Origin: Promethearchaeota archaeon
GTDB taxonomy: Archaea; Asgardarchaeota; Lokiarchaeia; Sigyniarchaeales; SOKP01
Direction of reading: 5' to 3'
Length of the DNA stretch: 31,766 nt
Assembly (NCBI GenBank): GCA_004524535.1
Contig: SDNY01000034.1
Span: 1-31,766, forward strand
In this document: positions 232 through 15,996 of the stretch, one piece after another
How the letters are laid out: every line of letters starts with the position of its first letter
How positions within the stretch are numbered: the stretch's first letter is position 1
Made by a program: the position numbers and the translations under genes
The notes under the pieces: model-generated
Databases searched by the model: none
Told to the model about the DNA's origin: nothing
The model's input: only the letters and a program-made list of their open reading frames with translations

Positions 232-1584
232 TTATTTAGATTTAATAGCTCCCTCTTTCTCCCACTCAAAATCCAAAGTAATAAATTTTTTCGTAAAAAG
301 ATAAGCTATTAGAATAATTCCAGAACACCATAAACCCCAAAGCACATATCCCCATGAAAAATCTTTTCCGGGAACATTAGGTAATCCTAAAATAAATCCT
401 GTAATAAATAGGGAGATTGCTTGAAAAATGTTAAGCAAGATTTGTGGAAATCCTGCATATAATCCTGCCTTTCTTCCTGTTTCTCCAGATTTTACTTCAG
501 CATCTTCAGCTAAGTCTGCGAACCAAATATATGGAAACAAATACCAACCTCCCATAAAAGCTGCGATTGCTAAGACAAAAATTATGCCAATTAAAAAATG
601 TATTTCACCAGGAATCAGTCCTATTAAAGTGAAAGGTAATACTATGATTCCTGTCAGTAAGATTATAGAAAAGGTTGATTTTTTGCCTTTTTTATCAATA
701 AGTTTTTTCCACATAAAAAGAAAAGCTGTAATTCCAACTATAAGGCACACAGCAGCAAAATATAAGGGAGCATCTTCCAATTTCAATACAATTGTTGTGA
801 AACCTAAAATCGTTGGTGTAATCATACCAATAGCTAAAAAAGCAATGGCCTGTAACCAACATACTTTAATGAAATTTTTATCTTTAAATACTTTCTTTAA
901 ATCCTCAGTGAAGCTCATCTGAGCCCCTTCAATTGTTTCTACTGGCAGAACATATGCACATGTGTAAAAAAGAGCAATTAATAACAACGCAAACGCTATT
1001 ATTAAGATTACAAAGATAAGGTCAATAGCTCCTGTTTTTTGAAAAGATTCAATCAATGGCGGAAATACAAGGAGGGTAAAAACTATACCAACACCTGCTC
1101 CAATAAAACTAAATAGATTCTGGAAAGCGGATGCTTTAGGTCTTTCATTGACTATGAATTGCTCAGCAACCCAAGATTGATAAGGTGTAGTCAAACCACC
1201 ATATGAGAATTGAAGCATAGAGTCCCAGACTAATATCCATATAAATAATATAATATAAGTTGGATTTTGAAGAAATATCATAGGTAACAATGCGCATATA
1301 AAAGCTAATGCTGTTAATGGAGCAAAAAAAATTATGAAAGGTTTTCTCCGCCCATATTTTGTTTTTGTATTGTCAGATAACCATCCCATTAAGAATTGTC
1401 CAGCCGCAATACTTAGTTTACCAACCGCTAATGCAAGTCCTGGAAGGATTGGATGAAGTCCATAGGCAGTAATATAAAGAAAAAGAATACCAAAGTCAAT
1501 AATATCTAAAACGATTGCAGCACTTAATCGAGGCATACCATAAGTTAAAAATTTTCTAGTCGAAGCGTGTCCTTCTGATTCCAT
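232..1584 (-). CDS. MFS transporter, GPH/MelB-like (MFS_2) family
   Basis: About 12 hydrophobic segments; GWLSDNTKTKYGRRKPF loop motif; ERPKAS; GRKAGLYAG. Confidence 0.9.
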   Translation of the reverse strand: MESEGHASTRKFLTYGMPRLSAAIVLDIIDFGILFLYITAYGLHPILPGLALAVGKLSIAAGQFLMGWLSDNTKTKYGRRKPFIIFFAPLTALAFICALLPMIFLQNPTYIILFIWILVWDSMLQFSYGGLTTPYQSWVAEQFIVNERPKASAFQNLFSFIGAGVGIVFTLLVFPPLIESFQKTGAIDLIFVILIIAFALLLIALFYTCAYVLPVETIEGAQMSFTEDLKKVFKDKNFIKVCWLQAIAFLAIGMITPTILGFTTIVLKLEDAPLYFAAVCLIVGITAFLFMWKKLIDKKGKKSTFSIILLTGIIVLPFTLIGLIPGEIHFLIGIIFVLAIAAFMGGWYLFPYIWFADLAEDAEVKSGETGRKAGLYAGFPQILLNIFQAISLFITGFILGLPNVPGKDFSWGYVLWGLWCSGIILIAYLFTKKFITLDFEWEKEGAIKSK

Positions 1585-13290: not shown

Positions 13291-14443
13291 CTACTCTGTT
13301 TTCTCTTCCCTACTCTCCCAGAATCCTTTTTTATTTAGAAATATTCCGATATAGACCAACGACAACATTATAGGAACTTCCCAGAATGACCCTTTCATAG
13401 TAAATCTATGAATCGTATAGTCCCATGGTAGTCCCTAATGCCGCGATTGATCCAACTCCATACATAGCAATTGCGACGGCAATAGCAATCTCAAAGTGGC
13501 TTGAAGATCCAATGATTATAGTAATTATTGCCTCTCGATAACTTAATTTTGTTAATTTTGTAATTATAATATTAATACTGACAACTATCGCAAATCCTAT
13601 AAGAAGTGGGATTGTAATCAGCAGCAATAAATCTGGACGCCGAACGATTATTTGCCCGTTTAAAGAGAATAATACAACCAAAGTCATTAAAAGCGCGCCG
13701 ATTGCTATTTTTGAAATCGCAGGTCTATATTTATTGTCAAACCAGTCTTCTCCTTTCGCATTTATCAAAAGTTTCTTACTTATTATCCCCAGCAATAATG
13801 GAGCTCCAATAAAAATAAACAATGAAATTAGCAAAAGAACTGGATCCAAAGGTATATTTTTTTCCAAAGTAATATTTGCGATGAATACCATGAGCATAAT
13901 TACCGGAATATATAGTACGATGATCGTCGCTGTATTTATGCTGGTTGTTATTACATTTTGTTCCTGATTCCCCTTAGCCATGTTTAGGGTCTATAAGGTA
14001 AATCCTAATATTAGATATCCCCAAACGAGAACCATGGCTGTGCAAGGACTGCTACTAAGCAGAATAATCGCAAATATTAACTGCTCATCTTCTAAAAACA
14101 AAATCGCCATTGCTATACCTATTAAAGGTGCAATTATCCAATTTGAAATTAAAGTGAGAATGATAGGTTTCGGATTTTTGCCTAATTTTTTAATTTCAGA
14201 TGCTTGAAGATTTAACATCGCGGGATACATCATAAAAAATAAGCAAATACCAATTGGTATTGAAATCCCTCTCACTTGCCATGAGTCTATTGATTCGCTT
14301 ATAGTCGGAATCACGTTAGATAGAAAGATTCCGAGAGCCATGCATAAAATAATCCAGATCGGAAGGAGTTTTTCAAAATAACCTAATCCTTTTCGCTTTT
14401 CTTCTTTATTTTCTAATTTTTCTTTATTGTTTAATTCATTCAT
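13291..14443 (-). CDS. acr3: Acr3 arsenite efflux permease, three exons (14443-14017, 13983-13417, 13385-13291), 362 aa after splicing
   Basis: MMYPAM, SNWIIAP, PCTAMVLVWGY|MAKGN, SSHFEIAIAVAIAMYG, MGLF|WEVPIML; exon lengths 427+567+95 = 1089 nt with no internal stop. Confidence 0.88.
13386..13416 (-). other. 31-nt BHB-type intron 2 in acr3
   Basis: GACU/GGUC 4-bp helix, bulges AU^A and AU^U, inner stem UUCAUAG/CUAUGAA; contains an in-frame UAG and shifts the frame. Confidence 0.82.
13984..14016 (-). other. 33-nt BHB/BHL-type intron 1 in acr3
   Basis: GGGG/CCCU 4-bp helix, bulges AU^A and AA^A, inner UCUA/UAGA and AGG/CCU, exon-exon stem AGCCAUG/CAUGGCU; in-frame UAG. Confidence 0.8.
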
Positions 14444-14578: not shown

Positions 14579-14989
14579 GTGTTTATCATTAAAGTCAAGC
14601 GTGTAAATGAAATTAAAGCAATGCTATGTTGTTGTGAAGATATCACAAATACAAATGAATATTTTAAAGAATTAAAAGAATTAGGAGAAAATTTGAGAAA
14701 TAATAATCAATTAAATAGTCTCCTTGTTTTTCTTAATGCTTTAAGTAATAAAGAACGCCTCATAATATTTAGCTCTTTAAAAGAGAAAGATAGATGTGTT
14801 TGTGAATTAGAAATAATTCTAAATAAATCTCAACCTTCAATATCTCATCATTTAAGAATACTTGAGGGTGCTGGTTTAATCCGAGGATGGAAAAAAGGAA
14901 AATTTACATATTACGGAATAGAACATAAAAATTTTAAAATAAGTCAAACGGATTTTATTGAGAATTTAACTTTAGAAAAAATTGCCTAA
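14579..14989 (+). CDS. arsR: ArsR/SmtB family regulator (3)
   Basis: MLCCCED, DRCVCELE, SQPSISHHLRIL; clear paralogue of 10886-11269. Confidence 0.92.
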   Translation: MFIIKVKRVNEIKAMLCCCEDITNTNEYFKELKELGENLRNNNQLNSLLVFLNALSNKERLIIFSSLKEKDRCVCELEIILNKSQPSISHHLRILEGAGLIRGWKKGKFTYYGIEHKNFKISQTDFIENLTLEKIA

Positions 14990-15229: not shown

Positions 15230-15649
15230 TTAAAAGGAATAGACTATAAGATCCTCAATCTTTTCAAAATGCTTTCGATTATTCGTAATGATTTCTTTAA
15301 ATTCATTTGTAAGTATTACAGCTGAAATTAGGCAATCAAAAATATCTATTTCTTGACCTTTACCTTTCAATTTCATATGTATTTTTGCCCCGAGATTAGC
15401 AGCATTTTCATTTAAGGAAAATGTTTCTAACCGGTTAATGAATTTCTTTAAATCTCCATTGAGTCTTTGGTATTCTTGCTTTGAAATTTTTTTCTTCAGA
15501 TATTTTAACTTATAAATACCAAGAAAAAGTTCAAAAATGGAAGGGCTAGTTATTCCAAATTTATCTGTCTTGAATTTATTCAACACTTCTTCAAGAGTAA
15601 CAGCACCATTTAGAATCTCAATGGCACTACTTGTATCTAAAAAAATCAT
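15230..15649 (-). CDS. vapC: PIN-domain toxin
   Basis: IFLDTS, FEL, FDCLISA, ITNNRKHF. Confidence 0.93.
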   Translation of the reverse strand: MIFLDTSSAIEILNGAVTLEEVLNKFKTDKFGITSPSIFELFLGIYKLKYLKKKISKQEYQRLNGDLKKFINRLETFSLNENAANLGAKIHMKLKGKGQEIDIFDCLISAVILTNEFKEIITNNRKHFEKIEDLIVYSF

Positions 15650-15651
15650 AA

Positions 15652-15885
15652 TTATGAAAATCTCTTATTAATCTCTCTACGCATCTCTTTATGAGCCTCT
15701 TCCATTATTTCGAAGTACTCTTTTGGTAAATCCTTCCAAATTCCAAAAAATTCACTGATACCTTTTGATTCCTTGGTAATACCTAACATGCGTTCGATAA
15801 CATCAGAAATACTTTCATTTTTTTTTTTTTTTTCGTTTAGTCTATTGTAAACTTCTTCAGAGATATCAATTGTTTTATATGTCAT
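15652..15885 (-). CDS. vapB: Archaeal VapB antitoxin (DUF217-like)
   Basis: KTIDISEEVYNRL...ESISDVIERM...FFGIW; 2 nt upstream of vapC. Confidence 0.9.
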   Translation of the reverse strand: MTYKTIDISEEVYNRLNEKKKKNESISDVIERMLGITKESKGISEFFGIWKDLPKEYFEIMEEAHKEMRREINKRFS

Positions 15886-15996
15886 ACTTATTCTAACAAA
15901 ATATGTCTTTTTAATTATTTATTTATATCTATAAAAAACAAATACTTAAATCATCCTAATTAAAAATTCAGGTAATATATGCTAATAAATATTCTA

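Follow-up and report, generated by a model that had tools for sequence, protein, structure and literature searches.

Two short inserts in the sole ACR3 gene of a Promethearchaeota archaeon as predicted bulge-helix-bulge-type introns

The window, i.e. the whole stretch of 31,766 nucleotides (nt) analysed here (contig SDNY01000034.1, positions 1 to 31,766), belongs to a Promethearchaeota archaeon with a 99%-complete assembly of 3.66 Mb, and is AT-rich (26-33% GC). Its minus strand carries a gene for the membrane transporter ACR3, an arsenite efflux permease, which is interrupted by two short inserts. In this study, these inserts are considered as candidate introns of the archaeal bulge-helix-bulge (BHB) type. 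The parts of the gene are as follows:

ACR3 exon 1, 14017..14443, minus strand: start ATG at 14443..14441, ending in ...VWG plus letter 1 of the next codon; Pfam SBF positions 2-81 of 191, E 1.5e-19.
Intron 1, 13984..14016, minus strand: 33 nt, relaxed BHB, with an in-frame TAG at 13993..13991.
ACR3 exon 2, 13417..13983, minus strand: Pfam SBF positions 85-190 of 191, E 1.2e-15; 85-92% identity to same-genus orthologues.
Intron 2, 13386..13416, minus strand: 31 nt, frame-shifting, near-canonical BHB (GACU/GGUC; bulges AUA and AUU).
ACR3 exon 3, 13291..13385, minus strand: FWEVPIMLSLV... to the stop TAG at 13293..13291, open only in the +1 frame relative to exon 2.

The reading frame meets the TAG at 13993..13991 after ...SSSPCTAMVLVWGYLILGFTL and then resumes in the same frame, which in turn contains a second TAG at 13408..13406, with the conserved protein end FWEVPIMLSLV... 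lying in another frame. The read-through protein matches Pfam SBF (PF01758) over positions 2-190 of 191 (E 4.6e-35) and contains the motif SSSPCTAMV with the conserved Cys of CxAMV, presumably required for transport, so that a full-length member of the ACR3 family was recovered. No second SBF/ACR3 match above the cut-off was found in the whole genome, and the interrupted gene is thus its sole ACR3.

A search with exon 2 of 40 related genomes found the gene in 36. Their ACR3 matches had no internal stops and lay in frames of 342-455 amino acids (aa), the exceptions being this genome and one gene at a contig end. The spacing between exon 1 and exon 2 was one codon in all of the 19 related-genome loci that were fetched, as against that codon plus 33 nt here. 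DNA alignment with same-genus orthologues (85-92% protein identity) gave two clean gaps, of 33 and 31 nt, in an otherwise intact gene. The boundaries of intron 1 were set independently by this alignment to intron-less orthologues, which allows two equivalent placements. The insertion point lies directly after ...SSSPCTAMVLVWG, hence just behind the PCTAMV motif, where an initial annotation of this DNA had put it. Removal of the insert gives GGA U|AC AUG and the protein ...VWGYMAKGNQ, colinear with ...VWGWMAKGNQ of the orthologues.

The minus-strand RNA at intron 1 reads AGCCAUG GUUCUCGUUU GGGG AUA UCUA AUAUU AGG AUUUA CCU UA UAGA CCCU AAA CAUGGCU, and its structural elements are listed below, together with their state in the seven carriers of the insert (described later):

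Outer stem, minus strand: AGCCAUG 14039..14033 with CAUGGCU 13982..13976, with a 10-nt internal loop on the 5' side before the central helix.
Central helix, minus strand: GGGG 14022..14019 (exon strand) with CCCU 13989..13986; 27 of 28 cells paired in the seven carriers.
5' bulge AUA, minus strand: 14018..14016.
Inner helix, minus strand: UCUA 14015..14012 with UAGA 13993..13990; unchanged in all seven carriers.
3' "bulge" AAA, minus strand: 13985..13983.

Three letters of the four-letter UAGA strand belong to the amber codon (13993..13991). All these elements, including the offset of the outer stem by an internal loop in the manner of a bulge-helix-loop, had been described in the initial annotation and were recovered at their positions. 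Cuts after letter 2 of each bulge excise 14016..13984, i.e. 33 nt, which agrees with the junction placed earlier and with the gap in 19 of 19 orthologue comparisons. At both inserts the predicted BHB cuts coincide with the alignment gaps (33 nt, 14016..13984; 31 nt, 13416..13386) and restore a colinear protein. A fully paired central helix with an adjacent inner helix of at least 4 bp occurs at a frequency of 6.8e-4 at random site pairs 33 nt apart in this genome, a figure that is indicative only, as the criteria were picked after the structure had been seen. The form found at intron 1 is the relaxed one (bulge-helix-loop; hBH/HBh'), with a canonical bulge, a 4-bp helix and the second site in a loop, and all seven carriers retain it. 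In the RNAalifold consensus, an 8-bp exon-exon helix, UGGUUCUC (14034..14027) with GGGAAUCA (13972..13965), closes a loop of 9 nt that has the 3' site at its edge.

Intron 2 folds into a central helix GACU/GGUC with bulges AUA and AUU and a 7-bp hairpin (region z -3.77). Its outer helix is weak, with 3 bp (G-C, G-U, U-G), and it comes nearer to the strict hBHBh' form than intron 1. The spliced junction would read GGGACUAU|UCUGGG, and removal gives ...TTMGLFWEVP, again colinear with the orthologues. Among its carriers, a compensatory change was seen in the central helix (pair 28-61, A-U to G-C in L109), along with a G-C to G-U change, and the inner-helix pair 38-54 occurs as U-G, C-G and U-A. 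Pairing was found in 91.7% of cells, compared with 35-54% with slid partners, and both-sided changes were present at two pairs, compared with 0 in all six slid versions. In L109 the insert is 32 nt instead of 31, with the exon frame kept. RNAalifold predicts a 13-bp exon-exon helix around intron 2.

The occurrence of both inserts was examined in two unbiased sets of loci. Neither was present among the 19 loci of relatives, and among 80 loci of the genome_contigs set chosen by protein similarity, intron 1 was present once and intron 2 three times. A degenerate pattern for site 1, requiring an insert of 25-55 nt, matched one further metagenome-assembled genome (MAG) in genome_contigs (L104, on the contig also represented by L039), and 6 of 10 matches in metagenome_contigs were real (L105, L109, L110, L111, L113 and L114). 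Five candidates (L103, L106, L107, L108 and L112) were dropped as not being ACR3. Thus, a homologous insert occurs at the same codon as intron 1 in six other contigs (L039, L105, L109, L110, L111/L113 and L114). A gap table of 106 loci with an exon-2 match, which holds pattern-selected loci and at least nine loci fetched twice and is therefore unusable for frequencies, listed intron 1 in the present gene, L039, L105, L109, L110, L111 and L113, and intron 2 in the present gene, L030, L037, L039, L105, L109, L111 and L113 (eight distinct contigs); L030 and L037 carry intron 2 without intron 1. A 414-nt contig from another study (run X3, record 26) covers site 1 with 42 mismatches (approximately 90% identity) and 0 gaps.

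The contig L114 (SDBV01372693.1) is a case of its own. At approximately 585..693 it holds a 111-nt island of ACR3 sequence, consisting of intron 1 with about 25 and 52 nt of flanks at 87% identity, behind a ChaC/gamma-glutamylcyclotransferase-like frame, and no further ACR3 sequence was found on this 1.2-kb contig. The island fits either a decayed gene or a moved fragment of intron with flanks.

An in-frame stop lies within intron 1 in all seven carriers. In six of them the first stop is the UAG of the UAGA strand, and L039 has an extra, earlier in-frame UGA. The initial annotation had named homologues with 11 extra residues and a sense codon in place of UAG as evidence against an intron; none was encountered, and the loci other than the seven carriers lack the 33 nt. 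Across the seven sequences, the inner helix and an apical AGG/CCU hairpin are invariant, and nearly every carrier has its own version of the 5-nt segment between the helices. The central helix shows only G-C to G-U changes (C to U), with one mismatch in L114. Overall, 92.9% of cells are paired, compared with 29-45% with slid partners.

With the inserts removed in silico, the frame is intact in each of the eight full-length carriers (354-378 aa; 66-92% protein identity). Over 211 codons of exons 2 and 3, the present gene and that of the sister carrier L105, which both contain both introns, differ by a nonsynonymous divergence (dN) of 0.038 and a synonymous divergence (dS) of 0.82. The resulting dN/dS of 0.046 is as low as that of intron-less orthologue pairs (0.09), and since these codons lie downstream of the stop and the frameshift, it argues for translation in frame past both. 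Judged from this divergence, the interrupted ACR3 is evidently still read, with the codons behind the stop under strong purifying selection. The introns of the two genes differ at 2 of 33 and 3 of 31 positions, far fewer than synonymous sites, and thus appear to be constrained themselves.

A quick ACR3 tree (LG+G4) was built from 77 proteins, after 18 deviants in the anchor motif, 3 short rows, 7 duplicates and the non-ACR3 matches had been dropped. Carriers fall in at least five separate places, each beside intron-less sisters. The present gene and L105 lie within the same-genus group, L039 beside L045, and L111/L113 with L070 and L089 (99* in each case). Nucleotide identity between the present gene and L039 is 0.5-0.7 overall and 0.9-0.97 over each intron with approximately 30 nt of flanks. 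Third-position agreement over the 12 codons 5' of intron 1 is 0.83 among the distant carriers (the present gene, L039 and L111), 0.58-0.67 in pairs that include L109, and only 0.17-0.50 when a carrier is set against its intron-less sister. Elsewhere in the gene this relation is inverted. The five full-length carriers all have CTC GTT ... GGA before and GGG AAT after intron 1. The similarity of the flanks fits selection on the exon halves of the motif and on the exon-exon helix (in which CUC pairs with GGG), and it also fits transfer of the intron with a co-conversion tract.

Further inserts were sought by a partial, motif-free census, in which 2,979 stop-to-stop frames of at least 70 aa, from 1.59 Mb (about half) of the same-genus genome G005, were compared with this genome. 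Matches were obtained for 2,021 frames, and eight places showed 8-400 extra nt between adjacent matches. Two were dropped: C100 (11 nt) is a plain indel, and C109 (19 nt, approximately 50% identity), dropped as a plain indel, is likely a paralogue or gene end. The others are listed below, with boundaries forced, the central helix as pairs of 4, and the inner and outer helices in bp:

C98 11116..11146 (L200): 31 nt, in Elp3; central helix 4/4, inner helix 7.
C26 5940..5968 (L204): 29 nt, in a MoxR AAA+ gene; central helix 4/4, inner helix 6.
C138 573..606 (L205): 34 nt, in a FAD_binding_4 protein gene; central helix 3/4, inner helix 5, outer helix 8.
C113 12409..12437 (L201): 29 nt, in a NifU-like gene; central helix 3/4, inner helix 5.
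C17 449..479 (L202), minus strand: 31 nt, in RNA polymerase A' (rpoA1), the genome's only Rpb1-domain-1 match; central helix 3/4.
C123 17019..17047 (L203), minus strand: 29 nt, in an E2-like gene; no BHB.

The rpoA1 insert lies within a Leu codon after ...TYDEDG and has a BHB-like motif and an in-frame TAG. The gene exits its 3.6-kb contig, and no further part of Rpb1 domain 1 was detected elsewhere in the assembly. A pattern for this site matched a 30-nt insert at the same codon in two more Promethearchaeota MAGs (L208 and L209). Both of these contain an in-frame TGA and a 7-bp hairpin, and their central helix is altered on both strands relative to this genome. The E2-like insert directly follows the His-Pro of the HPN motif of a gene resembling E2 ubiquitin-conjugating enzymes, and its removal restores the frame. 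Together with those of ACR3, this genome would have at least eight mini-introns (two in ACR3, and one each in the rpoA1, Elp3, NifU-like, MoxR, FAD-binding and perhaps E2-like genes), and seven of the eight inserts have boundaries two letters into the bulges flanking a helix of at least 3/4 pairs. The compared 1.59 Mb of G005 has none of these inserts at those sites, and the reverse search, with 7,158 frames of this genome (2,635 with matches) against G005, found three inserts in G005, none of them BHB-like. Extrapolation from the census suggests, without amounting to a count, that about a dozen introns of this kind are present.

The introns of the eight genes have no obvious common sequence, by which a repeat family was ruled out, and a search of the genome for further copies of either ACR3 intron (up to 7 mismatches, and blastn-short; the intron 2 query was offset by 6 nt) returned only their own loci. 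A structure-first scan for BHB motifs joining two open frames gave 159,491 hits, compared with 160,029-160,724 in four register-shifted decoys, and its strict subset gave 757, compared with 795-825; the scan thus showed no enrichment and had no power.

The splicing machinery of the host was identified in the same assembly. Two paralogues of the tRNA splicing endonuclease EndA are present (L001, 1168-1770, and L002, 1219-1821; 201 aa each). L001 has its best match in the A. pernix EndA chain 3p1z_B (E 7.6e-37), and Tyr, His and Lys of L001 align to 3p1z_B/3ajv_B. Its segment "gsplgiskprleyfhkpselsv" aligns to the extra loop of the A. pernix enzyme, and we take it to be the Crenarchaea-specific loop. 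L002 has Ser at the His position, with best matches to the M. kandleri fusion and the M. jannaschii enzyme. The pair has the features of a broad-specificity (alpha-beta)2 EndA, with one predicted catalytic and one predicted structural subunit, and fits the expectation of the initial annotation that a relaxed motif would need such an enzyme. The RtcB gene, on contig C101, is intact and uninterrupted, and cbf5 (TruB_N) is likewise uninterrupted. In the accessible text of two papers, two-subunit EndA is tied to relaxed motifs and to the cbf5 intron (PMC2738675; PMC5829648), and the accessible part of a preprint describes (alpha-beta)2 EndA in most Asgard genomes, along with heavily interrupted tRNA genes (bioRxiv 10.64898/2026.10.13.758758). 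In the present genome aragorn found only 12 tRNA genes, 8 of them with introns, including one call with an implausible 2,927-nt intron; most of the tRNA genes are probably too interrupted for this program.

On the basis of these comparisons, we consider it likely that 14016..13984 and 13416..13386 are archaeal BHB-type introns of the sole ACR3 gene, spliced from its mRNA. ACR3 would be transcribed with both inserts; at intron 1, the exon letters GGGG would pair with CCCU of the intron to form the 4-bp central helix, and AUA would form the 5' bulge adjoining the UCUA/UAGA inner helix. Exon-exon pairing would close a loop that holds the 3' site (AA|A), where the central helix ends, giving a relaxed bulge-helix-loop motif. 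The tRNA splicing endonuclease would then excise the intron from the mRNA, and RtcB would join the exons to GGA UAC AUG (G-Y-M), yielding an ACR3 of 361 residues; unspliced mRNA would yield a truncated protein of 150 residues. Cleavage and ligation are inferred here from the gene and its relatives.

Several observations weigh against this interpretation. Intron 1 departs from the strict hBHBh' form, as no outer helix abuts the 3' AAA, and the 5' strand of its flank (...CGUUU) is incompatible with pairing to CAUGG. The fold energy of the region is ordinary (minimum free energy (MFE) -19.1 kcal/mol, z -1.13) and taken alone is therefore not beyond chance. The MFE fold in this genome is the register GUUUGGGG/CCCUAAAC, in which the 3' AAA is bound by UUU and the cut site is buried, and the fold with both bulges open lies 3.3 kcal/mol above it (-20.5 vs -23.8; P ~0.004). 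The core helices of intron 1 lack a clean compensatory change, with no core pair changed on both sides, and a shuffle control matched the paired percentage in 143 of 500 shuffles, so that the structure is not separated from column make-up. Vertical conservation is not assumable either, because the carriers are scattered on the ACR3 tree. The E2-like insert has no BHB at its forced boundaries (1/4 pairs in the central helix), and indicates either that the motif rule is looser than modelled or that this is another kind of interruption. Finally, a search of sequencing runs found no RNA run containing the stretch.

The competing register had been foreseen in the initial annotation, which took two folds as a means of making splicing tunable; its interpretation as a whole is partly supported. 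The register is real and partly kept, with a U-A pair at columns 29-67 in all seven carriers and the same pair in the alifold consensus. In the other carriers, the predicted probability of the splice-competent fold ranges from 0.009 to 0.72. A conserved fold switch is not indicated, because the MFE fold of L039 is itself splice-competent (P 0.72). Two-fold tunable splicing, as modelled here, is thus unsupported as a conserved switch, and regulation of splicing by As(III) would be pure conjecture.

The absence of an RNA run, and an in-frame TAG and a frameshift that would kill the protein if not removed, could also be taken to mean that ACR3 is a pseudogene inactivated by two insertions, its BHB shapes being coincidence or relics; the 111-nt remnant on L114 shows that dead copies exist. 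We consider this very unlikely for a gene that is the only ACR3 of its genome, whose exons are all open after removal in the eight full-length carriers, and whose codons behind the stop have a dN/dS of 0.046 at a dS of 0.82. A like insert interrupts the sole rpoA1, which cannot be dispensable, and with the census inserts, rpoA1 among them, a pseudogene reading becomes untenable for the class as a whole. An assembly or binning artefact has a practically negligible probability: the reads of the probable source run (X1) yielded only brief pieces of low match, none spanning the stretch, and the joints listed, all from low-identity pieces, were disregarded, but the insert, with substitutions, is found at this codon in one further MAG and in contigs of six different metagenome record prefixes, as well as in the contig of run X3 from another study.

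Ribosome hopping has precedents in the bypassed "byps" of yeast mitochondria and in T4 gene 60, and the inserts might stay in the mRNA, intron 1 being passed by amber read-through or recoding and intron 2 by hopping or frameshifting. The length of intron 1 is a multiple of three, and CUA codons lie just inside both of its ends (GGA UAU CUA ... ACC CUA AAC) as possible take-off and landing sites. However, read-through would add 11 residues within the conserved CxAMVxVW region, which are seen in no orthologue, L039 has its additional earlier in-frame TGA, and ACR3 itself terminates in TAG. Moreover, the length of intron 2 is not constant (31 nt in most carriers, 32 nt in L109), no matching take-off and landing codons were found for it, and the inserts of the other genes differ in sequence and share BHB geometry alone. 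Retention is therefore highly improbable, and pyrrolysine/TAG recoding was set aside in view of the frameshift by intron 2, the TGA in L039 and the TAG terminator. The inserts might also be removed without EndA acting at BHB sites, by other RNA processing or by excision of DNA in part of the population. The 3' site of intron 1 outside a canonical bulge and the E2-like insert would accord with this, yet seven of the eight insert boundaries obey the BHB cut rule, and no intron-less DNA form was seen, in read coverage too poor to judge; we regard such removal as unlikely. Splicing of the two inserts as BHB-type introns accordingly remains the favoured explanation.

The neighbourhood of the gene and the wider occurrence of ACR3 gave further observations:

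ArsR-family regulator, 14579..14989, plus strand, divergent from ACR3: stop-to-stop frame, start approximate; Pfam HTH_5, E 1.9e-14.

The divergent ACR3/ArsR arrangement is common to the carrier L039. Two frames overlap on the minus strand beside the ars locus, one PIN-domain-like (15230..15664) and one small and ribbon-helix-helix-like (15652..15918); by eye the two (15230..15918) look like a VapBC-type toxin-antitoxin pair. In genome_contigs, the ACR3 genes of L041, L060, L064, L095 and L097, with 59-75% identity to the Asgard gene, come from MAGs titled Nanopelagicaceae, Flavobacteriales and Crocinitomicaceae, and that of L060 branches within the Asgard clade of the tree. Such a distribution suggests that the ars gene was transferred horizontally or that the bins are contaminated.

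A cbf5 pre-mRNA intron of Crenarchaeota was reportedly described by Watanabe et al. in 2002. In the accessible text of a later study, this intron is documented in Crenarchaeota (Desulfurococcales and Sulfolobales) (Yokobori et al. 2009, PMC2738675). As far as that text goes, cbf5 resembles ACR3 in having a short BHB-type intron in coding sequence, often with a relaxed motif, in a host with a hetero-oligomeric, broad-specificity splicing endonuclease, and in a patchy distribution with inferred gain and loss; both are routinely missed by gene callers. In contrast to cbf5, ACR3 encodes a membrane transporter and not an RNA-modification enzyme, occurs in Asgard archaea (Promethearchaeota) and not Crenarchaeota, has two introns per gene with presence/absence polymorphism within a genus, and has introns which, with approximately 30 nt of flanks, are far more conserved than the exons between distant carriers; its splicing is predicted here from sequence.

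HVO_1309 of Haloferax volcanii has a BHB intron in the 5' untranslated region (UTR) of its mRNA, according to the accessible part of that report (Schwarz et al. 2020, PMC7714728). As would hold for the ACR3 transcript, the tRNA splicing endonuclease here acts on an mRNA and not on tRNA or rRNA; unlike in ACR3, the intron lies in an untranslated leader with the frame uninterrupted, the enzyme is of the homodimeric type, and splicing was shown in vivo and in vitro. According to the accessible passages of these papers, archaeal coding sequence has a single known BHB intron, that of cbf5, with HVO_1309 as the 5'-UTR case (PMC7714728; PMC2738675). The Asgard tRNA introns, as far as the preprint is accessible (bioRxiv 10.64898/2026.10.13.758758), come from the same lineage with a predicted (alpha-beta)2 EndA, are of similar sizes, and show repeated recent gains, many on terminal branches, with the exon supplying half of the motif; these are tRNA genes, however, and that text uses protein-coding genes only as neighbours for matching loci. 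Our literature search, which had most subscription journals outside its coverage, found no paper on BHB introns in ACR3 or in Asgard protein-coding genes. In eukaryotes, HAC1/XBP1 mRNA undergoes unconventional cytoplasmic splicing, in which Ire1 makes the cuts as part of a regulated stress switch. As would be the case for ACR3, a protein enzyme cuts the mRNA at two small stem-loops, a tRNA ligase (RtcB in animals) joins the ends and the frame changes; the nuclease is Ire1 and not the tRNA splicing endonuclease, and the analogy is one of logic, with no homology claimed.

The class of introns to which those of ACR3 would belong is known but nearly empty. What appears new is the presence of two such introns in one transporter gene of Asgard archaea, what would amount to evolutionary proof of reading behind the stop (dN/dS 0.046), and a first partial, motif-free count with several more in the same genome, including RNA polymerase A'. 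Unusual features are the presence of two introns per gene, the polymorphism within a genus, a conservation of introns above that of exons, and the occurrence of companion introns in essential genes. It is conceivable, though on balance doubtful, that the mini-introns, rather than being relics, are still invading protein genes of Loki-type archaea and moving with approximately 30 nt of flanks, by a homing-like co-conversion without a homing endonuclease.

If this last reading is true, protein genes, RNA polymerase included, are already interrupted in the prokaryotes most closely related to eukaryotes, and expression of these genes would hinge on enzyme-catalysed mRNA splicing finishing before translation or competing with it. 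Gene callers split or truncate such genes, which would bias Asgard proteomes and counts of pseudogenes. Coupled transcription and translation is the general assumption for archaea, and the ACR3 gene makes testable how translation of unspliced mRNA would be avoided under such coupling. The findings would extend the rampant gain of introns in Asgard tRNA genes to protein genes, and bear on the tolerance of split genes before eukaryotes.

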